Source: a bacterium (lineage in GTDB: Bacteria > Hydrothermota > UBA3073 > JACQXS01 > JAGMCI01). From it: a stretch of 64,000 nt of DNA. Positions within the stretch are counted from its first letter, which is position 1; each line of letters begins with the position of its first letter. A program made the translations under genes and the position numbers. The DNA is taken from positions 1,271 to 65,270 of the forward strand of contig JASEGA010000006.1 of NCBI GenBank assembly GCA_030018315.1, read 5' to 3'. Below the pieces are notes generated by a model. It was not told the origin of the DNA. It was given only the letters and a program-made list of their open reading frames with translations, and ran no database searches. Below are positions 2,068-62,207 of this stretch, in pieces.

Positions 2068-2535
2068 TTATATAGTACTTTTTATCTTATTCAACCAATA
2101 TACATCTGCTTTATCCCTTTCTCTGTATGAATTCTTTTTGCTCTCTATAAGTTTATCAATACTTAACACCGGAATTTCAACACCTTCTACTTTTTCTATC
2201 ACTGTATCCTGGGTGGATGTTTCATAATTTATATTCCATAAAGTAGAGATAAGGTCTATCTCAGTCTTCCCTACAATCTTTACAGTTTGGCACTTTTTAA
2301 ACTCGTCTTCTTTTAGCTCTCTTACTCTTGGATAGATATCTTTCAGTGCTTCCTTTATCCGGCGAATGTTCTCAGCCGCAGGCTCTATAATGAAATCACA
2401 GTCATTTGTAAACCTTTCCTGCTTGGAAATTTCTTCAATCCCATGTAATTTACACGCATATGCACCACAAACTATGTATTTAACATCGTATTTGTTAAAT
2501 CTTTTGCATACCTCTAAGAAACTCTTATCTATCAT
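2068..2535 (-). CDS. Pol-beta-superfamily nucleotidyltransferase-fold protein (putative toxin/antitoxin-like)
   Basis: 155 aa carrying G-x-Y...DCDF (GS-x9-13-DxD-like) as in the CGAYACKLHG...NDCDFIIE segment. It overlaps the upstream small ORF by 4 bp (ATGA). Confidence 0.45.
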   Translation of the reverse strand: MIDKSFLEVCKRFNKYDVKYIVCGAYACKLHGIEEISKQERFTNDCDFIIEPAAENIRRIKEALKDIYPRVRELKEDEFKKCQTVKIVGKTEIDLISTLWNINYETSTQDTVIEKVEGVEIPVLSIDKLIESKKNSYRERDKADVYWLNKIKSTI

Positions 2536-2759
2536 TTCTTAGTAAGTTCTTCCCACGCTTTCATAACTCTACGGAATTCATCTTCCTGCTTTTCCTGTAA
2601 GTTCTTATACCGATAAATACCAGGGGGATAAGGTTTGACTTTTAATCGCATATATTCATATCTGTCAATTTCGTCTATTCTATTTTTTGTTATCCTATGG
2701 CTTAATTCCCATCTATTCTGTTCTTCTACTGTTTTAAATCTGTGAATTGAACTACTCAT
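2532..2759 (-). CDS. small hypothetical protein (75 aa), translationally coupled partner of the NTase-fold gene
   Basis: Charged 75-aa ORF with a 4-bp overlap onto the downstream gene; no recognisable motif. Confidence 0.35.
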   Translation of the reverse strand: MSSSIHRFKTVEEQNRWELSHRITKNRIDEIDRYEYMRLKVKPYPPGIYRYKNLQEKQEDEFRRVMKAWEELTKK

Positions 2760-3379: not shown

Positions 3380-4730
3380 TCACATTCTAAATACTCCAAA
3401 CTTATGGTCCGGAATAGGTGCATTAAGGGACATTGAGATGCCTAACCCAAGCACTGTCCTTGTATCAACTGGGTCAATTATTCCATCATCCCATAGCCTG
3501 GCAGTTGAATAATAAGCACTGGATTGCTCCTCATACTCTCTTAATATAGGCTCACGCAGTTTTTCTCTCTCCTCATCAGTCAATTCCTTACCCTCTTTTT
3601 TAAGTGCTTCTATCTTCACATCTAAAAGAACATCAGCTGCCTGCTCACCACCCATCACACATATTTTAGCATTCGGCCACATCCATAATAACCTCGGTTC
3701 ATATGCTCTGCCACACATCCCATAGTTGCCTGCCCCATAAGAGCCACCTATAATAACTGTAAACTTGGGCACATCTGCATTAGCGACTGCATGCACCATC
3801 TTAGCACCATCTTTGGCTATACCTTGATGCTCATACTTTTTACCTACAATAAAGCCAGTTATATTTTGTAAGAAAACAATATGCTGGCTCGCCAGGCTCT
3901 AAGCGCTCAAGGTCAAACTTCTTTGGTAGAGGTAGATTCTGGACAATATTTCTTGTTATCTCCAAAGCATGCTCATCATTAACCGCATAGTGGTCAGTAA
4001 CACCCGAAATCCGACAGTGAACATCAGCACCACCAAGCTCCTCAACAGTTACTACCTCACCAGTAGCCGCCTTAACAAGCGGCGGCCCCCCAATATAAAT
4101 TGTGCCCTCCTCTTTTACAATAACTACTTCATCACTCATCGCCGGCTGATATGCACCGCCAGCAGTACAGAAGCCCATAACTGCTGAAATCTGTGGTATG
4201 TTCATTGCCGACATGCGTGCCTGATTGTAAAAGATACGTCCAAAGTGGTATTTATCAGGAAAAGTGCCTGCCTGTAATGGTAAAAATATTCCACCCGAAT
4301 CTACGAGATATATACAGGGGAGCCTATTCTCCATCGCAATCTCTTGCGCTCGTATATGTTTTTTAATAGTCTCAGGCACATAAGTGCCACCCTTAACAGT
4401 GGCATCGTGTGCAACTACCATAACTTCTCTGCCATGAACTACACCTATTCCTGTAACTATACCTGCACATGGGTGCTCGTTGTTATACATACCACAACTC
4501 GCAAGTGGTGATAATTCAAGGAATGGTGTATTTGGGTCAAAAAGTAGTTTCAGCCTATCCCTGACAAACAGCTTACCACGTGCCTTATGCTTCTCATGCA
4601 TCTTAGAGGGCCCACCTTTTTTAACCTCAGAAAGCCGTTCCTTTAACTCCTTAACAAGCGACTTCAGGTGCTCCTTGTTTTCATTAAACTCTGAACTATT
4701 TGAATTTATCTTTGACTCTATCTTATACAT
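3380..4730 (-). pseudogene. methylcrotonyl-CoA carboxylase beta / acyl-CoA carboxyltransferase, disrupted by an internal deletion plus frameshift
   Basis: The N-terminal piece (3840-4730) matches the carboxyltransferase N-domain up to ...[11 protein letters not shown]. The C-terminal piece is open from 3899 in another frame ([38 protein letters not shown]...GIFRM). About 65-75 residues of the conserved YGIV...RNIP segment are missing between the pieces, and the junction is not a homopolymer. An intact paralog lies at 25769-27319. Confidence 0.75.
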
Positions 4731-4868
4731 AGCAACTCCCTGTTAAATTACAACATTAAATAAGTTTTTACTCAACGAAGTAGTAATTTAACTTACTCTA
4801 AACCAATCTGCTAAACCCACTGTAGTCAATGGGACTAAAATATCCGCTATCATACTTAAACTAATACT

Positions 4869-4917
4869 ACCTTATACCCGTAGTATAAAATACCTGTTTT
4901 ACCTTCCTCTTGAATCT
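4869..4917. repeat. 49-bp direct repeat (left copy), a duplicated 3' end of the DUF35 gene
   Basis: 41/49 identical to 5687-5735 inside the DUF35 CDS. Reverse-complement translation gives KIQEEGKTGILYYGYKVVLV*, versus KIQEEGKTGILCYGYKAVLK* in the gene. Confidence 0.65.
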
Positions 4918-4947
4918 TCCCATTATATCACCTTAATCTCTCTGCTT

Positions 4948-5280
4948 TCATCTTTCATAAATTATCTCCCCCCCTTTAGCATATTGAGAAATGGGAGAAA
5001 CACCTTTTTTGAAATCTTCTGGCGACATAGTAATGATGTCGAGTGGAATTAAAAATTTATCCATTAACTTCCATTCTATATCTCCTAACATCCTTGCTCT
5101 TTCAAATATTCCTTTGCCACTAAAACTTTTGGAGATTATAACTATGTCAATATCGCTATCTCCTCTGTAATTCCCTCTCGCATAGGAACCGAATAAAATT
5201 ATCTTATCTATCTCAAACCCACTGTTTTCTAATAGATTTTTCAAATACCCTATTATTTTTTCAATCTTTTCTTTAGCCAT
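4948..5280 (-). CDS. minimal nucleotidyltransferase (MntA-like antitoxin)
   Basis: ILFGSYARGNYRGDSDIDIVIIS, a GSxxxG...DxD motif. Confidence 0.85.
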   Translation of the reverse strand: MAKEKIEKIIGYLKNLLENSGFEIDKIILFGSYARGNYRGDSDIDIVIISKSFSGKGIFERARMLGDIEWKLMDKFLIPLDIITMSPEDFKKGVSPISQYAKGGEIIYER

Positions 5281-5648
5281 TTTAATATCTCCTTAGTGTT
5301 TTTGAGAATATCGTTCACTTTTTGTTTATTATATTCTTTTAACAAAACTCTCAATTCTTCGGGATATCTTGTAGGAATGCTAACACGATTAAGTTCTGTG
5401 ACAAACTCTTTTAAGTTATCTGGAAGTGATAGTTCTATCTTTTTAACCAAATAAATAAGGTTATGAACTTTTGGTGGGAGCTCGTTTAATTTCTGAGTAT
5501 ACAATCCTTTCAACGCTTTCTCAATAGATAAATGGCACATAAAAACTGTATAAATATATCTGCCTGTCTTAAACATTGCTTCCGCTGTTTCTACATCATA
5601 CTCAGCCTGCTTAAACCACTCATTAGGCAGTTTTAATTTTTTACCCAT
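5253..5648 (-). CDS. HEPN domain protein (HepT-like toxin)
   Basis: 131 aa with helical HEPN architecture; it overlaps the MNT partner. Confidence 0.75.
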   Translation of the reverse strand: MGKKLKLPNEWFKQAEYDVETAEAMFKTGRYIYTVFMCHLSIEKALKGLYTQKLNELPPKVHNLIYLVKKIELSLPDNLKEFVTELNRVSIPTRYPEELRVLLKEYNKQKVNDILKNTKEILKWLKKRLKK

Positions 5649-5672
5649 TATTTTAGCTAACTCAATTAGAAC

Positions 5673-6062
5673 CTACTTCAATACCGCCTTATACCCATAG
5701 CACAGGATACCGGTCTTACCTTCCTCTTGAATTTTACGAAATACAAGTTTCACTTTCTTGCCAATTTCAACAGCTTCTGGCTTACAATCTACAACTTGTG
5801 TCGTCAATCGGACACCATCGTTTGTCTCAATTACTGCAATAACATAAGGTATCTGAGTTGCAAATTGCTCAGGTGCCACTCTGACTACTGTAAAAGTAAC
5901 TATTTTACCTTCATCACTTAACTGCACAGTTTCAAACTCTTTTGACCTACATTTAGGGCAAATAAGACGGGGTGGAAAAAGTATCTTACCGCATTTCTTG
6001 CATTTACCTGCCTCTAATCTATATCTTTGCGGTATCTCTCTTGTATATCTTGGTGATGGCAT
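5673..6062 (-). CDS. DUF35 Zn-ribbon/OB-fold protein, the third subunit of the archaeal-type thiolase/HMG-CoA synthase complex
   Basis: CKKCGKILFPPRLICPKCRS zinc ribbon followed by an OB fold. It sits directly downstream of the thiolase. Confidence 0.85.
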   Translation of the reverse strand: MPSPRYTREIPQRYRLEAGKCKKCGKILFPPRLICPKCRSKEFETVQLSDEGKIVTFTVVRVAPEQFATQIPYVIAVIETNDGVRLTTQVVDCKPEAVEIGKKVKLVFRKIQEEGKTGILCYGYKAVLK

Positions 6063-6063
6063 A

Positions 6064-7211
6064 TCAATAAACTCTAAATATATGGACTACAGACGATGCA
6101 CCTGAGCCACCCATATTCTGAGTAAGCCCTATTTTGGCACCTTTAACTTGCCGCTTGCCAGCTACACCACGTAGCTGTTCTACTATCTCAACTACTTGAG
6201 CTACACCAGTAGCACCTACAGGATGACCTTTAGCTTTTAAGCCACCAGATGGATTAACAGGAATTTTGCCGTCCAGTGCTGTATATCCCTTTTCTGTGAA
6301 CTCGCCACCCTTACCTTTTGGGACAAACCCTAACTCCTCAATAATACATATCTCAGCTATTGTGAAACAGTCGTGAACTTCAGCTCATCAATATCATCTG
6401 GCTTTAAGCCCGCCTGCTTAAAAGCTGTCTCACCCGCAACTCTAACTGCTTTCAATGAAGTTATATCCTCCCTTTGATGCAAAGCAATAGTATCAGTAGC
6501 TGCACCTGAAGCAAGTATCTTGACAGGTTTATTAGTGTATTTTTTTGCAACCTCAAGTGGACAGAGTATAACACAGGCAGCACCATCTGATACAGGTGAG
6601 CAATCCATCAATGTAAGCGGGTCTGATACCAGCGTAGACTTCACAACTGTATCTACTGTAATCTCACGCTGGAATTGTGCATTTGGGTTAAGTGCACCAT
6701 TCTTATGATTCTTAACTGCCACAAGGGCAAGCTGCTCCCTCGTCGTCCCATACTTATGCATATGAGCTCTCGCAATCATTGCATATAAAGCTGGAAAAGT
6801 CATACCTTCATAAACCTCATACTCCTGGTCAGCAGCCGTTGATAATGCATAAGTTACATCTGCACCATCAGTCATCTTCTCTACACCACCTACAAGAACT
6901 ATATCACTCATACCAGAAGCCACATCCATAAACCCATGCCTCAACACCATACCACCAGAAGCACAAGCAGACTCAATCCTTACGGCTGGAATAGGGGTAA
7001 CACCTAAATAATCAGCCATCAGTGCTCCTACATGCTCCTGACCTACAAATAAGCCAGCAGTCATATTACCAACATACATAGAATCTATATGGTCAACTCC
7101 TGCATCATTTATCGCTTTGAGTGCTGCCTCTACAAATATATCACGAATTGACTTAGTCCAGAGCTCACCAAACTTTGTCATCCCAACCCCTATAATTGCT
7201 ACTTCACACAT
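6064..7211 (-). CDS. acetyl-CoA C-acetyltransferase (thiolase, archaeal type), with an apparent 1-bp frameshift near 6383-6388
   Basis: The track ORF 6357-7211 carries the N-terminal 284 aa ([16 protein letters not shown]...). The missing C-terminus [18 protein letters not shown]...[17 protein letters not shown]...[15 protein letters not shown] is intact in the -1 frame at 6064-6390. The shift is consistent with a single missing G (GAGG to GAG). Confidence 0.8.
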
Positions 7212-7213
7212 AC

Positions 7214-7546
7214 TTACCTTCTTTCTACTCCGCTACCTTCAAAAAAGTATTCTGGGTATCTTAGTTCCGTAGCATAGATAGTGAGTTCGTGAACTCTAAA
7301 GTCTCGTAACTTATCGAAATCTATATCAATTTCTTTGCATAAATTAATTATTTCAGATAAGTCATGAGTTTTTCTAAAAATCTTTCGGTGAAACACAAGG
7401 TATGCTTTGAGATACTTCTCAATGCATTGTTGACAATGAAAACAGATTGTATCAGTAGCAGGTTCTTGAGTATTTATTTCGTCTCGGGCAACTTTTAAGT
7501 CATTTTCCGCCTTCTTTATCCATTTCTTAACATCCTCTTCTTTCAT
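7214..7546 (-). CDS. HEPN domain protein
   Basis: 110 aa with an R-x4-H signature (RKTHDL) and HEPN helices. Confidence 0.8.
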
Positions 7547-7731
7547 ATCTCTACCCCTTCTTTATGTGCGAAAAATGAAATACAACCAATACTGTTTTTA
7601 TTAAGGAAATCCCAATCACTGCCTTGGTTGTAATCGCCTCTTGCCATACTGCCGAAAAGAATGATTTTTACTATTTCTAAGCCGTTTGTTTCTATCACTT
7701 TCCTAATTACTTTTACAGCAGTTTCTAACAT
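7543..7731 (-). CDS. minimal nucleotidyltransferase (short, possibly degraded MntA)
   Basis: ILFGSMARGDYNQGSDWDFL; only 62 aa; 4-bp overlap with the HEPN gene. Confidence 0.55.
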   Translation of the reverse strand: MLETAVKVIRKVIETNGLEIVKIILFGSMARGDYNQGSDWDFLNKNSIGCISFFAHKEGVEI

Positions 7732-7752
7732 ATCTTTCGTCTTTCCCTTTAA

Positions 7753-8799
7753 CTACTCATTCATTATTATCTTTCCCCTAAATTTAGCATACTGACCATA
7801 ATCTAAGTATATACGGTTGGTCTCAAGCAGTTCCTTAACTTTGACTGCTTTATCCCTTACTTCATCAATTCTATCTGTAACTTTAAACACAAATGCATCA
7901 CTGCCAGCACCTGACCCAAATGAGACAAGTAAAATAAGGTTGCCCACTTTTGCTACATCAAGGATAGCTGAAAACCCAGTAGGTGAAGACCCAGAGTAAG
8001 TATTACCCATCAATGGCACTATCCAGCCAGGTTCAATCTGCTCCTCTGAGAAGCCAAGTCTCTTGCCAACCTCCCTCGGAAACCTACCGTTTGGCATATG
8101 GAATACAGCATAAGTAAAATCACTTGGCTTAAGACCCGTCTTTTTAAAAATGCCATTACCTGCCCCCAATATATGCTTGAAGTAAGCAGGCTCACCGGTA
8201 AATCTGCCACCATGGCGTGGATAGAATGCACCTTCTCTTCGCCAAAAGTCAGGTGTATCAGTAGCAAAAGAATAAGTATCTATAACTTCTGCAATTACTT
8301 TATCTTTACCAAAAATGAAAGCTGACCCACCAGCAGAAGCAGAATATTCAAGTGCATCACCAGGTGCACCCTGTGATGTATCAGCCCCTATTGCTAATGC
8401 ATACTTCATCTCATTTGCTTTAACAAGACTATATGCAACATACATTGCCTCAGTCCCCGCCTTACACGCAAACTCATAACTCGCTATGTGGACTTCAGGA
8501 GTTATACCAAGAGCCTCAGCCACCACTGTCCCCGATGGCTTCACTGCATAAGGATGAGATTCTGACCCTACATACACTGCACCTATTTCTTTTGGGTCAA
8601 TATCTGCACGCTTAATAGCATTCTTAGATGCCTCAACTGATATAGTGATTGTATCCTCATCAATGCCTGGAACAGTCTTCTCTTTTAATAAGAGCCCACG
8701 CTTTACAGCCTCAGGGTCCATCCCCCATTGTTTAGCAATATCATCTACCTTAATCCTATATCTCGGCAGATACGAGCCATAGCCTACAATTCCAACCAT
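7753..8799 (-). CDS. hydroxymethylglutaryl-CoA synthase (archaeal/PksG-like type)
   Basis: 348 aa starting MVGIVGYGSYLPRYRIKVDDIA..., with a thiolase-fold catalytic Cys region (ASYEFACKAG). Confidence 0.85.
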   Translation of the reverse strand: MVGIVGYGSYLPRYRIKVDDIAKQWGMDPEAVKRGLLLKEKTVPGIDEDTITISVEASKNAIKRADIDPKEIGAVYVGSESHPYAVKPSGTVVAEALGITPEVHIASYEFACKAGTEAMYVAYSLVKANEMKYALAIGADTSQGAPGDALEYSASAGGSAFIFGKDKVIAEVIDTYSFATDTPDFWRREGAFYPRHGGRFTGEPAYFKHILGAGNGIFKKTGLKPSDFTYAVFHMPNGRFPREVGKRLGFSEEQIEPGWIVPLMGNTYSGSSPTGFSAILDVAKVGNLILLVSFGSGAGSDAFVFKVTDRIDEVRDKAVKVKELLETNRIYLDYGQYAKFRGKIIMNE

Positions 8800-8809
8800 T
8801 TTATTTATT

Positions 8810-9195
8810 TTACTCTAATTTTATCATTTCAAGATAATTTTTCAACTTCTCAACAAAATTCTTTGCTGTTTCTAACAAATCTTTAGCTTTTTCTTTAGTA
8901 AATGTAAAACCTCCACTATAATCTCCAACAACTCTCTTATCATAGGCGTCATTAAGTGCTTTTCCCAAATCTTTTTCAAAAATTCCTGTTTTTACAAAAT
9001 GCTCACCAAACAAACTTATCACGCCTTTATGGGAGGAGGCACTCAAACCTTTAGGAAGAAGCACCGCTTCCGCCATAAAAACATTGCATAATAACACCTG
9101 GAAGCACAGGAATCATAATCCTCAATATTTGAAGTATGTTCGGCTGTGATTAGGAATTTCTCTGCTTTTTCTATAGGATCTCTTATTTCTTTCAA
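8810..9195 (-). CDS. HEPN domain protein, with an apparent 1-bp frameshift in a T5/A5 run (~9077-9081)
   Basis: The track ORF 8810-9097 is the C-terminal part. The N-terminal part (KEIRDPIEKAEKFLITAEHTSNIEDYDSCASRCYYAMF) is open in a neighbouring frame from a TTG at 9195. T6 instead of T5 would restore one ORF. Confidence 0.6.
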
Positions 9196-9521
9196 ACTCT
9201 TACACCTTCTTTCTTTACATTCAACATCAATGGGGAATTGTAATTTTCAAAGAAATATTCGGGAACTGCTATAACCGAAACAAATTTACCTTCTTCAAGA
9301 AGCATGTCAAACAAAAGGTCACTCAAGCCTCTTCTAACCTCAAAAGGATTAAGGGACTCATCAACCACTACAAGTATATCAACATCTGAATCACTTACAG
9401 CTTCCCCCCTTACATGAGAACCATACAGTATGATATGTTTGATCTTTCCTCCATACATCTTTAACAAGTGCCCTTTTATTCGATTCACTAAATCTTTTAC
9501 TCTCGCATCCATTTTCTTCAC
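9192..9521 (-). CDS. minimal nucleotidyltransferase (MntA-like)
   Basis: ILYGSHVRGEAVSDSDVDILVVV. Confidence 0.85.
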   Translation of the reverse strand: MKKMDARVKDLVNRIKGHLLKMYGGKIKHIILYGSHVRGEAVSDSDVDILVVVDESLNPFEVRRGLSDLLFDMLLEEGKFVSVIAVPEYFFENYNSPLMLNVKKEGVRV

Positions 9522-9582
9522 CTCTTAGCAGGGTTCAGTATACCATTTTATTCCAATTTTATCATTTGTCAAAAGAAAATTT

Positions 9583-9610
9583 CTTGACTTTTATAAAATA
9601 GTTAGTAAAG
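9583..9610 (+). promoter_or_regulatory. candidate sigma70 promoter (TTGACT / TAAAGT) for the Kelch-repeat gene
   Basis: TTGACT at 9583-9588; a TAAAGT-like -10 about 16-17 nt downstream. Confidence 0.35.
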
Positions 9611-9631: not shown

Positions 9632-10870
9632 ATGAAAAGAGTATTTATAGGGATAATTTGTTATTTTATAACAAATGGATACGCTTTTACACAGGGTATG
9701 GATTGGGTATGTGCGACAGACAGTGCACCATGGCATGGAAGAGCATTCCATTCATCAGTTGTATTTGATAACAAGATGTGGATTATAGGCGGTGGGTGTG
9801 AAGAGGGTGGGATGGTATTAAATGATGTCTGGTATTCTTCTAATGGAGTCAAATGGGTATGTGCTACAGAGAATGCTGAATGGCTGCCAAGATGGGGACA
9901 TACATCAGTTGCATTTGATAATAAGATTTGGGTTATTGGAGGACTTGATGCTAATTTTGAGTTTAAAAATGATGTCTGGTATTCTTCTGATGGAACTAAA
10001 TGGGTATGTGCTACAGAGAATGCGGAATGGTCGCCAAGGATTGCACATACATCAGTTGTATTTGACGACAAGATTTGGGTTATTGGTGGATTTGGCTTTC
10101 CTTTTGAGTTTAAAAATGATGTCTGGTATTCTGCTACCGGAGATAGTTGGACACTTGCTACAGATAGTGCTGAATGGAATCCAAGAGCTGCACATTCATC
10201 AGTTATATTTGATGACAAAATTTGGGTTATTGGTGGATTTGACACCACTTTTATGGTTACAAACGATGTCTGGCATTCTACTAATGGAATTAAATGGGTA
10301 TGCGCAACAAATGACGCAGAATGGAGTGCAAGATATAGTCACTCATCAATCGTATGTGAGGATAAGATTTGGGTTATTGGGGGAATAGATGACTACGAGT
10401 ATATGAACGATGTTTGGTACTCAGATAATGGAAGCAATTGGTTATGTGCAACAGAAAGTGCACAGTGGTCACCAAGATATGCACATACATCATTAGTATT
10501 TGATAACAAAATGTGGGTCATTGGAGGTGAAGAAATAATAGGAGACAGTGTGAGTTATCCAACTGATGTATGGTATTCAGTTATTGCAGGAATTACAGAA
10601 AATAATGTCCAATCAGATAGACTCTATCTTAATGTTACACCAGTTATTGCAAGAGACTATGTAAAAATAAGATACAAAAATAACGGGGATGTAAAAATAT
10701 TTAATATATTAGGGAATACGGTAAGGAACTTTAAAACCGTAGACGACAGAGATGAAATAATTGTAGAATTAAAAGATAACAATGACAAAAGATTACCTCA
10801 AGGTGTATATTTTATTCAACTTAAAACCAAAGCTACCAGTGCAACTGCTAAATTCATAATCATGCAGTAG
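9632..10870 (+). CDS. Kelch/galactose-oxidase-type beta-propeller repeat protein with a T9SS C-terminal sorting domain
   Basis: Six or more repeats of NDVWYSS.G.KWVCATENAEW.PR..HTSVVFD.KIWVIGG. The C-terminal ~90 aa match the T9SS CTD pattern (LYLNVTPV...FIQLKT). Confidence 0.75.
   Translation: MKRVFIGIICYFITNGYAFTQGMDWVCATDSAPWHGRAFHSSVVFDNKMWIIGGGCEEGGMVLNDVWYSSNGVKWVCATENAEWLPRWGHTSVAFDNKIWVIGGLDANFEFKNDVWYSSDGTKWVCATENAEWSPRIAHTSVVFDDKIWVIGGFGFPFEFKNDVWYSATGDSWTLATDSAEWNPRAAHSSVIFDDKIWVIGGFDTTFMVTNDVWHSTNGIKWVCATNDAEWSARYSHSSIVCEDKIWVIGGIDDYEYMNDVWYSDNGSNWLCATESAQWSPRYAHTSLVFDNKMWVIGGEEIIGDSVSYPTDVWYSVIAGITENNVQSDRLYLNVTPVIARDYVKIRYKNNGDVKIFNILGNTVRNFKTVDDRDEIIVELKDNNDKRLPQGVYFIQLKTKATSATAKFIIMQ
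9700..10560 (+). repeat. intragenic tandem repeats of ~141 bp (Kelch blades)
   Basis: Near-identical nucleotide units repeat through the gene. They generate the spurious antisense/alternate-frame ORFs 9661-10248 and 9822-10388. Confidence 0.6.
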
Positions 10871-14647: not shown

Positions 14648-17620
14648 TCATGCCATCGCTTCTAACATCTTTTCAATGTTATCAAACCAATATTGTTTAT
14701 ACTCAGTAAGAGCTTTCGAAACGTCCTCTGGTCTTAGGAGCAATTTTATTCTGACTTTGAATCCGTTGTGATTAAAAACCCTTTCTTCTCCGTTTTCCTC
14801 GAATAATGCTTTATACCCATCAATTTTCCTGTAAGCACTTGTATGTTCTGTCCCCTTTGGATCAACAAAAACAATAAAGTAGTTATCTCCTTTCTTTAAC
14901 CAGAAAATAAAATCTGGGTAAAATCTGCTGATTTTATTCACATTAGGATTATAATACGGAATATAAATTTCGTCTAAACTTTCATCCAATTTGCTAAACA
15001 ACCACCAATCGAACATTTTAAATTTGTTAGCATTTTTAACTAAATAATTTTCCAAATCATTAATGAACTTTACCTCGCTTGAAGTCTTGATAACGTGCTT
15101 GATGTAATCTATCTTTTCGTCATCAGACAGTATAAGTGGAAGGTAGTAATGATTAGCAATGTACTTAATTCTCAGTTGTTTACTTTGATACTCTACTCTT
15201 TCCTCTCTGACCATCCGAGCAGATTCCTTGATACCTTCCGTGTATTGTTCTAAAGTAATTTCCCTACGCCCGTATTTCTCCTTCAACTCTCTTTCCAATA
15301 CAGAGGGGTCTTTGAATTGGCGGATAGCTTCAATTTTCTTTTGTATTTCGTTGATATCTTTCAAATACACCCTGATATTCTTAAAATGTTTTATCTCTTT
15401 CTCTAATTCTTTAAGCCCTTCAAATTCCTCTGGAACGACACTGAGGTAATCAAAAAATCTTTGAATAAGCAAATCTACATTTTTAAAACCTTTTTCACCA
15501 AACTTAAAATTGCTTTGATTATTCAATCTCCTTCTTAAAAGTTCTATTTTTATGGGTTCTGTGTTATATCTCATCAAGAATACTCTGTCATCTGGGACAA
15601 ACTCATTAAATTTATTAAGTACCTCAAAATCCTTAGTGGAAATCTCAAACTTTATTGGTTCTTCGGTCTTCAAAAGAGGATAATTTGCTGATTTGTATGT
15701 TGGCACCAGCAATTTATGTTTTCGAGCCTCATCATTCACAAAGAGAGAAAGTTGAGCCTCCCCCTCTCTTTTTCTTTCTCTCTCCAACTCCTGAACTACT
15801 TTAGCTAAAGCACTCCTGTTTGTTGCAAAAATAAATAGAGTTTCTATTGGTAAGACTTTATTTTTGATTTTGTTGAATAACTCCTCCCCATCTATCTCCT
15901 TTGCATTGTAAACTTGTAATAACCTCTTTCTTTTGTCCCTTATTGGTTCAATTCTTACTCCTCTCCCAACAGATTGTAAAATAAATTTTTTTGCATCCTC
16001 TCCCATTCCTATATTGATAAAATTGATTACATTGGGTCTATTAGAATCCCACCCTTCATAAAAACCACGAGAGCCCATCAAGATATTGATCTCAGAATTT
16101 TCTCTATTCAAATTTTCAAAATAACTTTCATCTTCAAATCTTTCTTGAACTTCGTATCCTGCAAGTTTTTCTTTTAGCCATCCTGATATATCACCTATTT
16201 TTATCAATGCAAAATGTTTATCGCTTGTCTTTAACTTAAACGCCAGCTCCTTCTTATTGGATGGTCTTCTTAAGATTTCAATTTCTCCACCTGATTTTGA
16301 GTTGTAAACATAGTTCAAAATATCTTCTTTTGTAATGTTTTTAAAAATTGTTTCGTCTATTTTTATTTTCCTGCCATCTTCAAATATAAACTCAGGCTCT
16401 TGCTTTAACTCATCCCATAGTTCGTTAAGAGCATTCTTAAAAACTTCTTGTTCAATCTCTTGTTTTCCAATTTTTTCAAGTTCTCTAAAAAACAGCTTTA
16501 GGTCAGCATCTTCCTTATTAACAGAGTTGACAAGGGTCAAAAGCAATGGCTTATGATATAAATCTGATCGGATATTCTTAATATCTTCATAAAATTTTTT
16601 CACATAAGTCAGAAGGATTAATGATTTTAAGACTATCTTCTGCTTCTCATCACCGCTATAATCTTCCTCATTTCTAAATGCCCTTATTTCTTGCTTTAAA
16701 ATAGTAATGTGCTTTCCGTATCCAGAATTTATAAAACTTGATAGGTTAAATTCAAAAGCACATGTGATAACATCTCTTGGGTCTATAAAGGTTGCTGAGG
16801 AATTAAATAGAAACCCCTGTCTTGATAGGATGGAATAAATATGCTGTCTTTTTGACTCTTCCTTATCTCCTTTATGTGCCTCATCGAGAAAAATATACCA
16901 TTTCCCATCGTTGTCGTAATTTTTGAAGTCTATAATTTTTTCTTTCTGCTCATCACTTAAGTTATCTGAGCGGTAATAAAATACGGTAATCCCGAATAAT
17001 GTTGGTTGTCTTTTAACCTCAGGATAATCTTTGAGCTCTTTTAGAATTATTCTGGGTTCGTTTACATAGTTGAATTCATCTACATGGTGTTTAAGTTGCC
17101 CTATTAAGTCGTCCCTGTGAGTTAAAATTAGAATATCGTATAGTGGAATTTCTTTTCTTTTAATTAACTCTGCTAAAATTTGGATAAGTTTAATGATAAC
17201 AAGGCTCTTTCCACTTCCTGTTGCCATCCAAAAACACATCCGATTGATAAGATGCTCATAAGGGATTTTCCCATCTTCTCGAGGATAATATCCTGTAAGA
17301 AGGTTATAGATGTTCCTTTTCCTCTTATCTAACTTAATATCTAAATTTTCATCTAATCCATTATCTTTATACCAGTTGAAAAACTTTTGTTTTCTTTCTT
17401 GATAGATTTCTAATCTTTCACCGTCTTGATAATCTACAAAATCTTCAAAATACTTCCAGATAACCTTTACAGCATTTTTAACTGCCTCTTGCTGATAATC
17501 CCAGAGTTTCTTGTTCTTGGAAAAACTCTCCAAATCAAAAGAATTCCAGTTAGCAGGTAAATCTTCAAATCTTAAATCTTCAATTATGTCCTGTAAGAAT
17601 ATTCTTACCATTTTTACCAC
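14648..17620 (-). CDS. Type III restriction enzyme Res subunit (SF2 helicase plus C-terminal PD-(D/E)xK nuclease)
   Basis: 990 aa with Walker A MATGSGKS, DEAH box FLDEAHKGD, a helicase C-domain, and a C-terminal VFVDPKG motif. The start overlaps the Mod stop. Confidence 0.8.
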   Translation of the reverse strand: MVKMVRIFLQDIIEDLRFEDLPANWNSFDLESFSKNKKLWDYQQEAVKNAVKVIWKYFEDFVDYQDGERLEIYQERKQKFFNWYKDNGLDENLDIKLDKRKRNIYNLLTGYYPREDGKIPYEHLINRMCFWMATGSGKSLVIIKLIQILAELIKRKEIPLYDILILTHRDDLIGQLKHHVDEFNYVNEPRIILKELKDYPEVKRQPTLFGITVFYYRSDNLSDEQKEKIIDFKNYDNDGKWYIFLDEAHKGDKEESKRQHIYSILSRQGFLFNSSATFIDPRDVITCAFEFNLSSFINSGYGKHITILKQEIRAFRNEEDYSGDEKQKIVLKSLILLTYVKKFYEDIKNIRSDLYHKPLLLTLVNSVNKEDADLKLFFRELEKIGKQEIEQEVFKNALNELWDELKQEPEFIFEDGRKIKIDETIFKNITKEDILNYVYNSKSGGEIEILRRPSNKKELAFKLKTSDKHFALIKIGDISGWLKEKLAGYEVQERFEDESYFENLNRENSEINILMGSRGFYEGWDSNRPNVINFINIGMGEDAKKFILQSVGRGVRIEPIRDKRKRLLQVYNAKEIDGEELFNKIKNKVLPIETLFIFATNRSALAKVVQELERERKREGEAQLSLFVNDEARKHKLLVPTYKSANYPLLKTEEPIKFEISTKDFEVLNKFNEFVPDDRVFLMRYNTEPIKIELLRRRLNNQSNFKFGEKGFKNVDLLIQRFFDYLSVVPEEFEGLKELEKEIKHFKNIRVYLKDINEIQKKIEAIRQFKDPSVLERELKEKYGRREITLEQYTEGIKESARMVREERVEYQSKQLRIKYIANHYYLPLILSDDEKIDYIKHVIKTSSEVKFINDLENYLVKNANKFKMFDWWLFSKLDESLDEIYIPYYNPNVNKISRFYPDFIFWLKKGDNYFIVFVDPKGTEHTSAYRKIDGYKALFEENGEERVFNHNGFKVRIKLLLRPEDVSKALTEYKQYWFDNIEKMLEAMA

Positions 17621-20210
17621 CAGATTAAAGGTTTAATGAGTTTGTAATCTAAATTTTTAAGGTCTATTTTTTCTCCATCCTCAAATTCCACTTCATCAGC
17701 AGATATTCTCTTTATCCACTTTCCTAAAATGTTAGAAAGTGTCTCTGGAACGTCTATGTTTGGATAAAGTTTTGATAAATCCACCTTTACTTTATTATTC
17801 TCATAATCTATTTCTAACGCAGAAAGCATTTTCAAATCCCGCATAAAAACATATTGATTGTATGGGTCTTCATAAGGATTTTCAAATAAATCTGAATCCT
17901 CATATTTCGCTCTCCTTAAAGTATCCTCGTATTGCTCAAGTTCGTAGTATTTGAAAAATCCTCCACCTTGCCAGTTTACTTCTTTGGAGATACCACAAGG
18001 TTCATGATTGCCTTTACCTGCCAACACTTCTTTCATTCTCGGAAGAATAGTATCATAAAAATAGTTGCCCATTTCAATCCCAAGCCATTTCCCCCTAACT
18101 TTTGCATTACTGCGGTGGTCGTTCCAGAACCCAGGAAAAAGTCCAATATTAAATTTCGTTTTTCGTAATTCGATAGCTCCATTACTTTATTAATAAATGC
18201 TTCGGGTTTTTTACCGCTTCCAAAATAAGCAGGACCTTCATATCCAGTTCTATTGAATTCATTAACCATATCAAAATAGTTTGGATAAGGTATCTCTTTG
18301 ATTTCACGTTTATTTACTGGAATCCCTTGAAAATAATCACCATTGTTCCTTTTTGATGACTTATCAGGGATACAAAAATAACGGTAACCTAATCCATCAT
18401 TTCCCATCTCATGAACTTTAAATAAGTAACCTCTATAATTTTCAAAATTCGGTTCGAGATACTTTACATAAAATCTCCCACTAGAATTCCCTTGTCGAAT
18501 AGACCCTCGTATATTGATTCTTTTTAGCTGTTTTTCGCCTGGATTTAGCTGTACAAATTCATATGAACCAGGTTTAAATACCTCCACTTTTTTACTGCTG
18601 AAATTCAGAACTAAATCTGCTCTCTTTTGTTCTTTTACTTGCCAAATGTATTCATTTATTGATGTATTCTCCTTTTTTATTTTTTTAATCATATGATTTT
18701 TACTTTTTCTATAATATAAAAGATTCTCTACAACTTCATGGACTTCCTTGTCACCTTTCAGTATTCTTTCTTCATGTCTAACTTTAATAACAAAATTTGC
18801 CAGGTAATTAGCGTCAGTAAATACCATATCTGTAATATGCTTTAAGTTATAAAGTTCATTTTCATTAATACTTACACAGATATTTCCTGTATCTCTTAGA
18901 AATTCTTTTGCCATTTGTAGCCTATTTAATATCATTGTTAGCCAAGTAGAATGTTGAAACTTGTCTTTATAAATAAATTCATCACTGCCAGTATTATAAG
19001 GCGGGTCAATGTAAATCGTCTGCACCTTTTCTTTAAACTTCGGCAAGATCGTTTGCAATGCTTGATAGTTTTCGCTTTTTATCAGCCAGCCATCTAAGGC
19101 GTTATCTAAATCGTCAAACAAGCCTAAAATTTCAAGTTCTAAATCCTTAAAGTATTTTGTATCAATTGGCAGATGCTGGTATTTAGAATTTAGAGATTCT
19201 TCGCTATCGCTCAGAATGTCAGAAGAGGCGAAGTTATCAGCCACAATCCCTAATTCTTTCCAATCTTTTACCTGTTCATTAAAGTTCTTGTGATTTAATA
19301 TTTTCTCTACAACTTCAATGCTTTTATCTGCTATCTTATCCAGAGTTATCACATAGTTTGAGTTTAAAGCAAACTTTGGCTTATTCCAGATTTTTACAAG
19401 CTCGTCTTCAAATTGAGAAATAAAATTAATTATCTTAAATGCTATATCTTTTAAGGTTTGTAATTGTTTTATCCTTTCTTCTGTCCAATCGCTTTCACCA
19501 GAGAAAACATACTGATAAAGCCAGATATTAAATTGCTCTTTTAAAAATTCTTTTGCATTTTTGTTGATGAAAAAATCTACCTCGCTCTGCTTCTCAAAAA
19601 CTCTAAAAGCATTCTCTAATATATCATCCGTTATTCTTATCCCTTCTTTCTTTAATGTCTTCAAAATCTCATCAATTTTTGTTATCTTACCTCGCTCAGA
19701 ATAAGAAACATTGAAAACAATTATCCCATCATTCCTTTTCTTTTTAAATTCAAAAATTATCTCTTTTTTCTCAAAGGCTTTCTTATGCTCTAATCGTGAG
19801 ACATCAAAGAAGAATTTGAAACCGTCTATTTCTACTTCCAGATTTTTAAACAACCTATCAGTTTTGACATAATAAAGCATATGCGTTTTCCAGAAGAGCA
19901 TCGTATCTTTATCATCGGTATATACATTCTCATAGACATTTTGATGAATTGGGGTATATCTAAAATAAATAGAACCGCTTTCTGAAAAATAACGATTGAA
20001 GAAGGTGTAGAGTTTATCAAAAAGCTCTTCTCTAAATCCTGGAAACGGATTTAATGCCTCTTCTAAGTCCTTTTGAAGTTTTGGAAAGATACCTTTTTCA
20101 TAGTATCTTGATTTAATCCTCATCAAATTGATGTATCCAGATTCTCCTTCTACCTTTGCACCTACAAAGATGTCTTTTAATGCGTTATAGAATTTTTCTT
20201 CCTTAGTCAT
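17614..20210 (-). CDS. Type III R-M Mod N6-adenine DNA methyltransferase, with an apparent 1-bp frameshift in a G5/C5 run (18091-18095)
   Basis: DPPY motif IV (YIDPPYNTGSDEF) precedes the FFLGSGTT AdoMet motif, i.e. beta-class order. The track splits it into 18033-20210 and 17614-18072; G6 instead of G5 would read ...KLGGKWLGIEMGNYFYD... continuously. Confidence 0.8.
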
Positions 20211-20741: not shown

Positions 20742-20993
20742 TCAACTCATAGTGACCGCCTCGTATTTTCTCTCTTTAAGACTCCGTGCCTGCACCTCAA
20801 GATGCTTATACCGCTCAAAATCTGCAATATCCTCAACTACTCCTTCTTTCCATTTATACCTCCTTTTACTCAAACATATTAACAAAATTTCGTGAAGAGA
20901 AAACTTAGAGGTCTCACCTTTAATCCACACATCACTATCATTTTCTTGCTTCGTCATTCGACATTCGCCCTGAATCAAGTTCAGGGTCGTCAT
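20742..20993 (-). CDS. small hypothetical ORF coupled to the MCM stop (TAATG); doubtful
   Basis: 83 aa with no motif. Its 5' region overlaps a hairpin/heptamer-repeat element (20949-20986), so it may be non-coding. Confidence 0.25.
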   Translation of the reverse strand: MTTLNLIQGECRMTKQENDSDVWIKGETSKFSLHEILLICLSKRRYKWKEGVVEDIADFERYKHLEVQARSLKERKYEAVTMS

Positions 20994-22576
20994 TAAAACA
21001 CAAACTTCTCTTTGTATTCACCAAACACTTCCCTTAATACACTACAGATCTCACCCAATGTAGCGTAGCACTTGACACAGTCAATGATTGGTTCCATAAG
21101 GTTGCCATTATCTTCTGTTGAACCTCTGCCCTGAGCAGAGCGAAGGGAAAGTGAAGCATCTCGAAGAGTCTTTAAAGATGCATTCACTTTACGATTATCC
21201 CTTGTTGACTTCAACTTTTTTAGTCTTACTATCTGCTCTTCTCTTACCTTTGGGTCTACTTTCAGTATATTTTTAGTGTAGTCCTCTTCACCTTCTACAA
21301 ATCTGTTAACCCCAACAACTACTTTTTTACCACTCTCAATTGCTTTCTGGTATTCATACGCACTATTATGAATTTCATGCTGAAAGTAACCAATCTCAAC
21401 TGCCTTTAAGGCGCCACCAATTGAGTCTATCTTGTTTATATACTCCATAGCTTTTGCTTCAATATCTTTAGTAAGCGATTCTATATAATAAGAACCACCA
21501 AGTGGGTCAATAGTGTTAGGGACACCGCTCTCATATGCAATTAGCTGCTGTGTCCTCAATGCAAGCCTAACCGCTTCTTCACTTGGCAATGCGAGTGCCT
21601 CATCCATTGAATTAGTATGTAAACTCTGTGTGCCACCAAGAACAGCAGCAAGTGATTGGAATGCAACTCTTACAGCATTGTTTTCGGGCTGCTGAGCAGT
21701 CAATGTACAGCCGGCAGTCTGGGCATGAAATCTCAGCATCCATGACTTTGGGTCTTTAGCATTAAATCTTTCCTTCATTATCTTTGCCCATAGCCGCCTG
21801 GCAGCACGAAATTTAGCTATCTCTTCAAAGAAATCGTTGTGTGCATTAAAGAAGAATGATAGCCTTGGTGCAAATGAGTCTACGGTAAGCCCACGCGCAA
21901 TAGCTGCCTCTACATAAGCTATAGCATTAGCAAGTGTAAATGCAAGCTCCTGTACTGCAGTTGCACCTGCCTCTCTTATATGATAACCGGAGATTGAGAT
22001 TGTATTCCATTTAGGTAAATATTTACTACAATACTCAAATATATCTATTGTAAGCCGCATTGATGGGACAGGTGGAAATATATATGTGCCACGTGCAATG
22101 TATTCCTTTAATATATCATTTTGAACAGTGCCCGAAAGTAGCTCCCTTGATACACCTTGCTTATTAGCGACTGCTATATACATTGCAAGTAGTATAGGAG
22201 CAGTTGAATTTATTGTCATTGAAGTGCTTACTTTATCAAGAGGGATGCCATCAAATAAAGCCTCCATATCCAAAAGTGAATCAATAGCGACACCAGTTTT
22301 ACCAACTTCTCCCTCAGAAAGTGGATGGTCTGAGTCGTAACCCATCTGAGTCGGTAAATCAAATGCTACTGATAGCCCTGTCTGTCCCTGTGCAAGTAAA
22401 TATTTATATCGCTTATTAGACTCCTTTGCACTCGCATAGCCAGCATACTGACGTATAGTCCATAGTCTACCACGATACATATTAGGATAAATACCACGTG
22501 TAAATGGATACTCACCAGGAAACCCAATGTCCCTTAAGTAATCTAAATCTTTTATATGTTTAGGAGTGTATAACAT
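20993..22576 (-). CDS. methylmalonyl-CoA mutase-family large subunit (catalytic TIM-barrel domain, split type), with an in-frame family-B element insertion near the C-terminus
   Basis: 527 aa with [23 protein letters not shown] and [14 protein letters not shown]. The extra ~15-17 aa [15 protein letters not shown](NG) near the C-terminus are absent from the paralog at 30172-31785. Confidence 0.9.
21124..21168. repeat. family-B palindromic element (reverse orientation), in frame within the MCM CDS
   Basis: ctctgccctgagcagagcgaagggaaagtgaagcatctcgaagag. It shares GAGATGCTTCAC and GCCCTGAGC modules with 31797-31875 and 40361-40415. Confidence 0.75.
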
Positions 22577-22577
22577 T

Positions 22578-22605
22578 GAAAGTCTAAAAGTTCTTAACTT
22601 TTGAG
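22578..22605 (-). promoter_or_regulatory. AGTCTAAAAG motif site F4 (inverted orientation), between the four-helix gene and the MCM start
   Basis: gaaagtctaaaagttcttaacttttgag. Confidence 0.4.
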
Positions 22606-22946
22606 ATTAACACATTTAACATTTTTATTATTTCATTTAACAAAGCTATCTGGTCTCTCACTATACTCTTATCAAGAAAACTAACCTCCCTACATTTAAT
22701 ATACCAATCTCGACTCTCGGTAGCTTCCCCTTTTGCCACTCCTAAGTGATAACTAAATTCTTTACGACTTTTTCTACCAAACTCCTCTGCTATGTTAGCA
22801 CTGATAGAACCGACAGCTGATATAAGTTGATTAGCAATTATCTTTGCCGCAACAGTTGCTGGAAACTTCTCAACATCTTTAACAGCAAGGGCAAACAGTT
22901 CCACAGCCTTCTGCTAGACAACTAAGTCCTGAAACTTTCTCACCCT
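22584..22946 (-). CDS. four-helix-bundle protein (PF05635 / 23S rRNA-IVS family), with an in-frame TAG at the conserved Trp codon
   Basis: The upstream extension reads [23 protein letters not shown]...; the family consensus is LxVWQKA, so TGG appears changed to TAG. The track ORF restarts at a CTG at 22904. Confidence 0.55.
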
Positions 22947-22952
22947 CTCCAT

Positions 22953-22980
22953 ACTTTTAGACTCTTAGACTCTTATTCTA
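22953..22980 (-). promoter_or_regulatory. TTTTAGACT motif site F5, upstream of the four-helix-bundle gene
   Basis: acttttagactcttagactcttattcta. Confidence 0.5.
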
Positions 22981-23467
22981 TTATTACTAATGTATCGCCC
23001 CCATTTACCGTCATCCCCTGTTTGACAAGTACCTGCTTAACAAGCCCATCTCTTGGTGCCTTCATCTCATTTTGCATCTTCATCGCCTCAACTATCAAAA
23101 GACCACTACCCGCTTTTACTGTATCACCTGGCTTTACCCCTACTTCTATAACTAACCCTGGCATGGGAGCAGTGACCTTAACTTCACCAACATGAGTAAT
23201 CTCAGGCTTGAGTTTAGTGAGTGCTTGTACTTGCTCATCCTCAACACTTACCTTGAATCTCTCACCATCTACCGAAATAGTATTCTCATCCTCAATAATA
23301 ACATCATACGACTTGTTATCAACTATCAGTGATAAATGTGAATTACTGCCAACCTCCACAACAGTAGCTTTCATAGGCTTGTTATCTATATAAACTTTGA
23401 ATCCATTACCTTCTTTTTCTAACTCAACTTTGAACTCCTTATCATCAACTTTAGCAATATATGCCAT
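22973..23467 (-). CDS. biotin carboxyl carrier / biotinyl-domain subunit
   Basis: C-terminal EAMKM biotinylation motif (VEAMKMQNEM) plus a ~90-aa N-terminal extension. Confidence 0.85.
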   Translation of the reverse strand: MAYIAKVDDKEFKVELEKEGNGFKVYIDNKPMKATVVEVGSNSHLSLIVDNKSYDVIIEDENTISVDGERFKVSVEDEQVQALTKLKPEITHVGEVKVTAPMPGLVIEVGVKPGDTVKAGSGLLIVEAMKMQNEMKAPRDGLVKQVLVKQGMTVNGGDTLVIIE

Positions 23468-41872: not shown

Positions 41873-42049
41873 AAATCAAATTGATTTTTGATTTTGAGGG
41901 ACGGGTAGTCCTGTTATATTATCACGATACTCAGTAGACACCATAAAGAGTTCCAAGAAAAAGTAAGAAGATTTGCTCAAGAGGAATTAGCCCCAAGAGC
42001 ACAAGAAATTGATAAAAAAGGAGAATTTCAGTTTGATATTTTTAAGCGG

Positions 42050-61786: not shown

Positions 61787-62207
61787 TATAAAGAAGATAC
61801 TTGAAATAATGCCGCATCGGTACCCAATGCTACTCGTTGATAGGATAGTTAAACTTGAGGATGACGAAGTTATAGGTGAGAAATGTGTTAGTATAAATGA
61901 GCCATTCTTTCAGGGCCATTTCCCTGGTCATCCAATTATGCCGGGTGTCCTGATTATTGAGGCTATGGGGCAGGTAGGCGGTTTTTTGCTACTAAAGAGG
62001 GTGAAAGATAAGAGTGATAAGGTAGTATATTTCTTAAAGATAGATAAAGTAAAATTCAGGAAGCCAGTTGTACCTGGGGATGTCTTGAGAAGTGAGCTTA
62101 AGTTGCTGAAATATAAAGGTGGTTTATGTGTGATGGCGGCTAAAGCCTATGTGGGTGATACACTTGTAGCAGAGGGTGAATTTACAGCTAAGGTAGTGGA
62201 GAAATGA
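61776..62207 (+). CDS. fabZ: 3-hydroxyacyl-ACP dehydratase FabZ
   Basis: MEFDIKKILEIMPHRYPMLLVDRI…GHFPGHPIMPGVLIIEAM. AGGAGG RBS upstream of the ATG at 61776 (the track start at 61734 is likely too long). Confidence 0.9.
   Translation: MEFDIKKILEIMPHRYPMLLVDRIVKLEDDEVIGEKCVSINEPFFQGHFPGHPIMPGVLIIEAMGQVGGFLLLKRVKDKSDKVVYFLKIDKVKFRKPVVPGDVLRSELKLLKYKGGLCVMAAKAYVGDTLVAEGEFTAKVVEK

Follow-up and report, generated by a model that had tools for sequence, protein, structure and literature searches.

How do small two-gene modules of the toxin-antitoxin (TA) type come to lie at several gene junctions of a single metabolic operon, and what becomes of the modules and of the operon? We consider this question for a 64,000-nucleotide (nt) stretch of a bacterial metagenome-assembled genome (MAG; contig JASEGA010000006.1), hereafter the window, in which an operon for archaeal-type HMG-CoA synthase (HMGCS), thiolase and a DUF35 protein is interleaved with HEPN/MNT gene pairs. 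A preliminary description had placed three such pairs at 4948-5648 (pair 1), 7214-7731 (pair 2) and 8810-9521 (pair 3) and a fourth at 62204-63026 (pair 4), and Pfam matches bear out all four. The interpretation that we favor, with a probability of about 0.7, is that three unrelated HEPN/MNT modules of class II were gained horizontally at junctions between operon genes and are now mostly decaying.

Judged by curated thresholds, pair 4 alone would qualify as a type VII system and pairs 1-3 as class II modules. Against the NCBI type VII models for MntA (NF047752) and HepT (NF047751), both with a cut-off of 60 bits, MntA4 scores 98.7 bits and HepT4, after repair of a frameshift, 96.1 bits. MNT1, MNT2 and MNT3 reach 34, 25 and 32 bits, all under the cut-off, and HEPN1-3 give no match to NF047751. 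The label "type VII-like", originally given to the whole set, is therefore appropriate for the fourth pair and not for the other three. The GS-x10-DxD motif is present in all four MNT proteins, and the RX4HXY motif is found in pair 4 (RNILVHEY) and missing from pairs 1-3, where HEPN1 has PTRYPEE, HEPN2 LRYPEY and HEPN3 KRVVGDY, that is, R-Y-P in the first two and R-x4-D-Y in the third. Pairs 1-3 thus show the class II combination of a PF05168 domain beside a PF01909 domain, with GS-x10-DxD and without RX4HXY. The Pfam cut-offs are 22 bits for PF05168 and 21 bits for PF01909, and the assignments to these families and to PF01934 are supported, those of HEPN3 and the DUF86 gene of pair 4 after a one-base repair. 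Repaired HepT4 matches PF01934 at 7e-26 and the Aphanizomenon protein 7AE9_A at 1e-12; MntA4 matches 5YEP_A from Shewanella at 1e-8. Class II HEPN/MNT modules are without biochemical study, and their status as TA systems awaits validation (Yao et al. 2020, PMC7641770).

Among the four pairs only pair 1 is intact. Its HEPN gene lies upstream of the MNT gene, with an overlap of 28 nt that recurs in homologous cassettes. HEPN1 has 1711 homologues, the best of them (82%) from Ratteibacteria, and the family conserves H39, E43, K44, H62 and R94-Y95-P96. The conservation of R-Y-P reaches at least 95% for both HEPN1 and HEPN2 when each is compared with 120 homologues, and the polar residue set kept in both families suggests an enzyme. 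The closest solved structures to HEPN1 (1UFB, 1WOL and 1O3U) are uncharacterized structural-genomics proteins.

To judge how exceptional the inserts are, we compared the locus with about 143 orthologous operons (75 genome loci and 68 metagenome loci, numbered with the prefix L, from WOR-3, Stahlbacteria, TA06, Cloacimonadota, Ignavibacteria and others). Median spacers in these relatives are 17-18 nt between HMGCS and thiolase, 10-12 nt between thiolase and DUF35 and 124-164 nt between DUF35 and carboxyltransferase; the corresponding distances in the window are 541, 0 and 942 nt. Since the junctions are short in the orthologous operons, the inserts are specific to the lineage of the window. No HEPN/MNT pairs occur at the corresponding junctions of the closest relatives, and no locus among the 143 has more than two small inserts, which agrees with the initial impression of an unusual density. 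A phmmer search with the same queries found 9 open reading frames (ORFs) in 1.39 Mb (160 homologous neighborhoods) against 4 pairs in 64 kb, a comparison that favors the window's own sequences.

The three modules in the operon share only 30-45% identity with one another, which indicates separate acquisitions and led us to reject the idea that a single cassette was recently copied inside the genome. Their G+C content (GC) is 0.30-0.36, and that of the operon genes 0.43. At the DNA level, cassette 1 shares 80.7% identity with a Ratteibacteria cassette located after chorismate synthase and 77.8% with a cassette that a groundwater bacterium carries between genes for a peptidase and a Tricorn-like protein, whereas the DNA of HMGCS is only 72% identical to its nearest relative. 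In the Ratteibacteria and groundwater hosts the cassette has a GC of about 0.31-0.33 and the flanking genes 0.42-0.43. Homology of cassette 1 across genomes runs from the HEPN start codon to a few bases past the MNT stop, so the mobile unit is essentially the two ORFs, and HEPN1-MNT1 cassettes are tightly embedded and co-directional with their neighbors in other genomes too. Separately, several Ratteibacteria contigs (L082, L086-L088; 4816-5530) carry a HEPN1-like cassette with a module of Polbeta MNT and HepT-like_2 directly after it and then a reverse transcriptase gene, and sibling contigs have an ISL3 transposase in that place, so that the junction varies between strains.

Decay is visible in both modules and host operon. 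The 62-aa (amino acid) MNT of pair 2, initially described as truncated, is indeed short, compared with 106 aa for the equivalent beside an intact homologue, but the cause is an internal deletion that removed about 40-45 aa in frame: MNT2 consists of an N-terminal half with GS-x10-DWD joined to the native C-terminus (KEGVEI). Its partner HEPN2 lacks about 24 C-terminal residues relative to homologues of 127-137 aa. In pair 3, MNT3 looks intact, with the ATG at 9512 as its likely start, and in HEPN3 a T5 run (9077-9081) carries a 1-nt frameshift that divides the gene in two; one-base repair restores a 128-aa protein with a full-length PF05168 match (5.5e-22, 78.6 bits). In the operon itself, the thiolase gene has a 1-nt deletion near 6385, outside any homopolymer, between DID and AEVHDCF. 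Related thiolases are 380 aa in a single frame, and that of the window has no NCBI protein accession. A programmed -1 frameshift or a translational restart was considered and rejected, as the gene lacks a slippery heptamer and offers no start codon until its last 20 codons. The carboxyltransferase gene has lost about 257 nt out of frame near 3879 (residues 285-369), and its two tblastn segments lie in different frames. What had been taken for a core-metabolic operon is therefore damaged, and, as a mevalonate/HMG-CoA-type operon, it has probably lost its function in this MAG.

We consider these lesions real. A Logan assembly of SRR23186779 is 100% identical over 9984 nt, although it may rest on the same reads; long ORFs elsewhere in the window (500-990 aa) are intact; and the toxin genes hold 22 of the 392 runs of at least 5 nt, yet two of the three homopolymer frameshifts fall in them (chance of about 0.009 by our own estimate).

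Downstream of each cassette the upstream flank occurs again, over 56 nt for pair 1 and about 45 nt for pair 3, with an 8-nt microhomology for pair 2 (Table 1). The two copies at pair 1 (copy A, 5735-5680; copy B, 4918-4863) are 82% identical over 56 nt, a score reached by none of 300 shuffles. Copy B ends in VLV and a stop codon followed by TTAGTTTAAG, like the DUF35 ends of relatives, and is untranslatable in place, with a TGA upstream and no start codon. Over 19 codons, the copies differ by nine synonymous and two non-synonymous changes, with the in-frame stop kept in both, where random change would be expected to give 22% synonymous differences (binomial P = 3.7e-5). As the differences are mostly synonymous, the copies appear to have diverged as coding sequence in different lineages, which points to two alleles joined by recombination rather than to a decayed target-site duplication. 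The pair 3 copies agree at 36 of 42 aligned bases with two indels, and again 0 of 300 shuffles reach the score. At pair 2, the 3' joint of HEPN2 falls within 8 nt of microhomology (GAGTAGAA) to the HMGCS stop and native spacer, and that spacer is preserved intact ahead of the thiolase gene.

Table 1. Positions and state of the operon genes, inserted modules and flank copies, and of pair 4 (positions as in the window).
Feature	Position	Strand	Description
Enoyl-CoA hydratase	2064-1279	-	downstream of ORF75 + ORF155 insert
ORF75 + ORF155 insert	2068-2759	-	between DUF3795 and enoyl-CoA hydratase genes; ORFs overlap by 4 nt
Acyl-CoA carboxyltransferase pseudogene	3380-4730	-	split; tblastn against 535-aa proteins of two relatives (L002, L007)
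Pair 1 copy B	4856-4918	-	untranslated, putative second allele of DUF35 3' end (KIQEEGKTGILYYGYKVVLV, stop)
MNT1	4948-5280	-	110 aa, intact; GS-x10-DID; PF01909 4e-14, 53 bits
HEPN1	5253-5648	-	131 aa, intact; PF05168 1e-25, 90 bits
DUF35 scaffold protein	5673-6062	-	intact; zf-ChsH2 + OB_ChsH2_C (PF12172 + PF01796)
Pair 1 copy A	5680-5735	-	last 56 nt of DUF35
Thiolase pseudogene	6065-7211	-	split; PF00108/PF22691
HEPN2, putative class II	7214-7546	-	PF05168 1e-21, 77.5 bits, profile positions 1-95 of 117
MNT2 relic	7543-7731	-	62 aa; PF01909 1e-7, 32.5 bits, profile positions 2-37 of 93
HMG-CoA synthase, archaeal type	7753-8799	-	348 aa, intact; 84% aa identity to WOR-3 MAG
Pair 3 flank copy 2	8807-8848	-	overlaps last 13 HEPN3 codons; abuts HMGCS start codon
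HEPN3, putative class II	8810-9195	-	two ORFs, 9043-9195 and 8810-9097; both halves match PF05168
MNT3	9192-9521	-	GS-x10-DVD; PF01909 8e-10, 39 bits
Pair 3 flank copy 1	9545-9590	-	holds promoter-like site
MntA4, putative class I (type VII) adenylyltransferase antitoxin	62204-62614	+	intact; Polbeta/PF01909; GS-x10-DID
HepT4, putative class I HEPN RNase toxin family (DUF86)	62611-63026	+	RNILVHEY; frameshift in A5 run 62692-62696

The common geometry is a flank allele, the cassette (with its 3' end sometimes truncated), a partial second flank allele and the downstream gene. We tentatively propose, as the most likely route, that each cassette was imported by one-sided recombination, though we rate this somewhat short of even odds. 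In this scenario, the cassette would come from a diverged relative already carrying it, with a homologous anchor in the conserved upstream gene, and an illegitimate joint would close the downstream side, by homology-facilitated illegitimate recombination or by Campbell-type integration of a circle with a flank fragment. Once in place, the cassettes, which lie 2-24 nt from their neighbors with no room for a promoter of their own, would presumably rely on the operon promoter for transcription. If class II works as class I does, MNT (GS-x10-DxD) would nucleotidylate the conserved HEPN tyrosine and keep its partner inactive, and such a modification would make the pair addictive. Familiar mobile elements do not fit. 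There is no integrase between 1 and 14.6 kb, and the cassette ends have no shared repeat family, attC-like palindromes or terminal inverted repeats. Integron cassettes were rejected for lack of an integrase, attC sites and shared cassette boundaries; insertion sequences, transposons and miniature inverted-repeat elements were rejected because terminal inverted repeats and a transposase are missing and the flank repeats, at 45-56 nt, are imperfect. The suggestion of an actively turning-over cassette population thus survives in part: independent horizontal gain and decay are supported, and shuffling within the genome is not, given the 30-45% identity and the lack of common ends, attC-like repeats and a recombinase. 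No relevant report came out of a literature search for TA insertions with direct repeats on either side.

A different origin of the flank repeats would be the insertion itself, through a staggered break or replication template switching, with drift of the downstream copies and no donor allele. All three cassettes share one geometry in which the upstream flank is repeated downstream, microhomology-mediated events can create duplications, and indels separate the pair 3 copies, in keeping with drift of non-coding DNA. We nevertheless hold this to be unlikely, because nine of the eleven pair 1 differences are synonymous with the stop in frame in a copy that cannot be translated where it lies, and because 45-56 nt far exceeds the target duplications of known transposases. 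A little less likely still is that the lesions, and perhaps some of the joints, are assembly artefacts from mixed strains or error-prone reads, and that the real modules and operon are intact. Three of the four 1-nt lesions do lie in homopolymers (T5, A5 and the G5 run of a type III mod gene), the window comes from a MAG, and the second assembly derives from one run, perhaps the source run. Sequencing error would have to spare the long ORFs, strike the thiolase gene outside homopolymers and prefer the toxin genes, and neither the 257-nt carboxyltransferase deletion nor the in-frame deletion in MNT2 is an error type; the identical second assembly is moreover k-mer based.

The nature of the modules, as distinct from their arrival, may also be read in other ways. 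Pairs 1-3 could be mobile, non-addictive two-subunit nucleotidyltransferases in which HEPN is the substrate-binding subunit, as in kanamycin nucleotidyltransferase, with a role in stress response or small-molecule modification, a possibility left open by Makarova 2009 (PMC2701414) and Yao 2020 (PMC7641770). It would account for HEPN1-3 lacking RX4HXY and failing the HepT model, for the uncharacterized state of the closest solved structures, and for the HEPN-first order of pair 1, at odds with the antitoxin-first arrangement typical of such modules (PMC3710099). Yet the HEPN1 and HEPN2 families keep an active-site-like polar set (H, E-K, H, R-Y-P), the lesions fall preferentially in the HEPN partner (HEPN2, HEPN3, HepT4), as expected for toxins, and patchy spread across phyla together with decay suits selfish modules; we regard this explanation as unlikely. 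Domestication as operon regulators, for example as HEPN RNases that tune the polycistronic mRNA under stress, seems to us scarcely credible. It would fit the recurrence of MNT/HEPN genes near the operon in five relatives (L018, L042, L075, L122, L166) and the tight coupling to operon genes, but the junction occupants vary by lineage (IVP, PDDEXK_3, RAYT-like and other HEPN/MNT subfamilies) and are missing from most relatives, three of the four window modules are broken, and no orthologous module is conserved across relatives.

Several observations weigh against horizontal gain followed by decay as we describe it. If the platform was a long-read one, the A5, T5 and G5 frameshifts could be sequencing errors. 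Copy 2 of the pair 3 flank overlaps what Pfam aligns as a genuine HEPN C-terminal helix, so that the repeat may be derived from the cassette and not from the target, and the pair 2 scar, at 8 nt, is not significant in the shuffle test. Homologous HEPN1-MNT1 cassettes (L082, L083, L090, L093) have no significant flank repeats, and the repeats are therefore not a general signature. Among the inserts of relatives, none of those in L009, L016, L018 and L065 has significant flank repeats, and only the RAYT-like gene of L062 is flanked. Within the genome and metagenome collections no relative above 84% aa identity was found, and there is no strain-level comparison of empty and filled sites, so donor and recipient cannot be told apart. 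Class II HEPN proteins, finally, lack RX4HXY, and their toxicity has never been demonstrated (PMC7641770).

From about 9570 to 1279 or beyond, every gene is on the minus strand and spacers are very short; the order is promoter-like site, MNT3, HEPN3, HMGCS, MNT2, HEPN2, thiolase, DUF35, HEPN1 and MNT1, then a 217-nt spacer, carboxyltransferase, DUF3795, two unknown ORFs and enoyl-CoA hydratase. The usual operon in the host group would read HMGCS-thiolase-DUF35-carboxyltransferase-enoyl-CoA hydratase with spacers of 10-20 nt. Archaeal homologues of thiolase, HMGCS and DUF35 form a known channelling complex, and the assignment of the corresponding window genes holds: the genes for HMGCS (about 350 aa), thiolase (about 380-390 aa) and DUF35 (zinc ribbon and OB fold) are adjacent, in an order kept in the 143 loci, with the thiolase frameshifted in the window. 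HMGCS matches the HMG_CoA_synt_N model only below its cut-off; its NCBI name is hydroxymethylglutaryl-CoA synthase. Its aa identity to MAGs of WOR-3, Stahlbacteria and TA06 is 84-77%, by which the host (protein accessions MDI68398xx, locus tags QMD71_) appears to be an uncultivated bacterium near these groups.

A promoter-like site, TTGACA-16-TAAAAT (9572-9545), matches 11 of 12 positions and is the best of the region. Further such sites inside the operon (31, against 19 ± 5 in shuffled AT-rich sequence) were given no weight, since they are about as frequent as in the shuffled sequence, and a check across the region found no intrinsic terminator between operon genes. Scanning all of the window for Rfam families and tRNAs gave no matches, so that neither a tRNA-type integration site nor, in the 217-nt spacer, a riboswitch is present. 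The window HMGCS has no Shine-Dalgarno sequence before it (8797-8830, GAGTAAAATAAATAAAATG), and AAGGAGG lies 5-8 nt upstream in 12 of 12 relatives inspected (L002-L018). HMGCS may be translated by coupling to HEPN3, or else from a leaderless transcript that the duplicated promoter-like copy would supply. Divergent from the operon is a gene for a Kelch-repeat protein with a type IX secretion system (T9SS) C-terminal sorting domain (9632-10870, plus strand); its internal DNA repeats are near-identical (86%, 9967-10131 compared with the next unit), and the Logan contig breaks there.

In other lineages, the same junctions hold different small genes: 23S_rRNA_IVP four-helix-bundle genes in L009, L018, L095, L065, L146 and L167, PDDEXK_3 in L016, MNT with HepT-like_2 in L018, RAYT-like genes in L062 and L166, and MNT/HEPN genes after carboxyltransferase in L075 and L166. 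All are co-directional with the operon, and this uniform orientation with the 2-24 nt spacing suggests either dependence on host transcription or survival of non-polar insertions only. Within the window, the lineage-specific ORF75/ORF155 insert, in one transcription unit with pairs 1-3, is without homologues in the 160 related loci; for the DUF6036-like ORF155 only 20 homologues turned up, of which one carries PF19502 (DUF6036), and it has a nucleotidyltransferase-like motif (G..A...HG..R.T.D.D), and the insert may be another TA-like one. One may speculate, as a distinctly improbable idea, that operon junctions are shared landing pads for promoter-less, recombinase-less small cassettes (class II HEPN/MNT, 23S-IVP genes, PDDEXK_3, the DUF6036 pair and RAYT-like genes) across several FCB-group phyla, with transfer between diverged genomes anchored in conserved flanking genes. 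DUF35 was checked for co-travel with inserted cassettes: the DUF35 of L095 groups with WOR-3 relatives and not with the Cloacimonadota that carry the homologous IVP insert. The four operon genes of the window have differing best hits (L002, L011, L009, L032), all at 75-84% and too distant to call a mosaic.

Related observations concern these genes themselves. Homologous IVP genes sit at exactly the thiolase-DUF35 junction in L095 and in Cloacimonadota L009 and L018. Thiolase-DUF35 spacers are 100-145 nt in WOR-3/Stahlbacteria relatives (L002-L010) compared with about 5 nt in Ignavibacteria, and the long ones may be relics of a lost IVP insert. The window has a 106-aa 23S_rRNA_IVP gene of its own (22584-22904, minus strand), a small co-directional insert within a metabolic operon, 7 and 68 nt from its neighbors, which resemble genes for methylmalonyl-CoA mutase (20993-22576) and a biotin carrier (22973-23467). 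In L062 (Zixibacteria), the gap between DUF35 and carboxyltransferase holds the RAYT-like gene (IS200-like Y1 transposase) with nearly identical 54-nt REP-like palindromes on both sides of it (8660-8713 and 9360-9413).

Pair 4 lies elsewhere in the window, where MntA4 overlaps the fabZ stop by 4 nt. Two further genes outside the operon are irregular. At the type III restriction-modification locus (14648-20210, minus strand), the Mod methylase is split into ORFs of 725 and 152 aa at a G5 run (18091-18095; KLGG|KWLGIEMG) and is followed by an intact 990-aa Res helicase; the split could reflect phase variation, inactivation or a homopolymer error. The middle of three tandem acyl-CoA dehydrogenase genes (41873-43078, plus strand) has no canonical start codon, its homology extending about 35 codons upstream of the first ATG/GTG/TTG to a stop codon, and either the N-terminus is truncated or an unusual start is used.

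The locus offers a compact natural series in one transcription unit, with one module intact, one frameshifted and one truncated. Its allele-type scars may be a clue to how recombinase-less modules spread, namely through homology in conserved neighbors; if the landing-pad idea were true, this would amount to an integrase-free exchange system with allele-duplication scars as its footprint. The intact HEPN1/MNT1 pair, with close relatives in many phyla, is a convenient candidate for a first functional test of class II, and the probable loss of function of the operon is a caution for annotators of this MAG.

Homology-facilitated illegitimate recombination, a process of naturally transformable bacteria, has reportedly been shown experimentally in Acinetobacter and Streptococcus, in work of 2002 by de Vries and Wackernagel and by Prudhomme and colleagues. 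A one-sided anchor with a microhomology joint, as in that process, fits the pair 1 alleles and the GAGTAGAA joint of pair 2, although recombination in the window, unlike in those experiments, is deduced from scars alone. The resemblance to TA cassettes of Vibrio superintegrons lies in small, promoter-less, co-directional cassettes, presumed expression from an upstream promoter and TA modules among other genes; unlike integron arrays, the window has its cassettes interleaved with conserved operon genes. Pair 4 shares motifs, MntA-then-HepT order and a 4-nt overlap with the HepT/MntA systems of Shewanella oneidensis (5YEP, 6M6U) and Aphanizomenon flos-aquae (7AE2, 7AE9), but its HepT4 is frameshifted, and for pairs 1-3 AMPylation is only an analogy. 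With the class II proteins of known structure (1UFB, TT1696; 1WOL, ST; 1O3U, TM0613), pairs 1-3 have in common the domain pair, GS-x10-DxD, the lack of RX4HXY and a conserved R-Y-P tyrosine in HEPN. Class II has been reported mostly from archaea and thermophiles, whereas the host here is an FCB-group bacterium and pair 1 is HEPN-first.

The nearest precedent is the MNT-HEPN module in the lysine operon of Thermus thermophilus HB8, absent from HB27 and read as a sign of recent mobility (Makarova et al. 2009, PMC2701414); Makarova, Wolf and Koonin describe another such module from a gene cluster of Deinococcus radiodurans. Insertion of MNT-HEPN modules in a biosynthetic operon has thus been known since 2009, and the window is a denser example. 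As in HB8, a two-gene module lies within an otherwise conserved metabolic operon. Unlike T. thermophilus, where HB27 has the empty site, the window has no empty-site sister strain. It differs from HB8 in having three different modules and further inserts, flank scars, and degradation of most modules and of two operon genes, and it thereby adds recombination scars and the decay of both modules and host operon to a known phenomenon.

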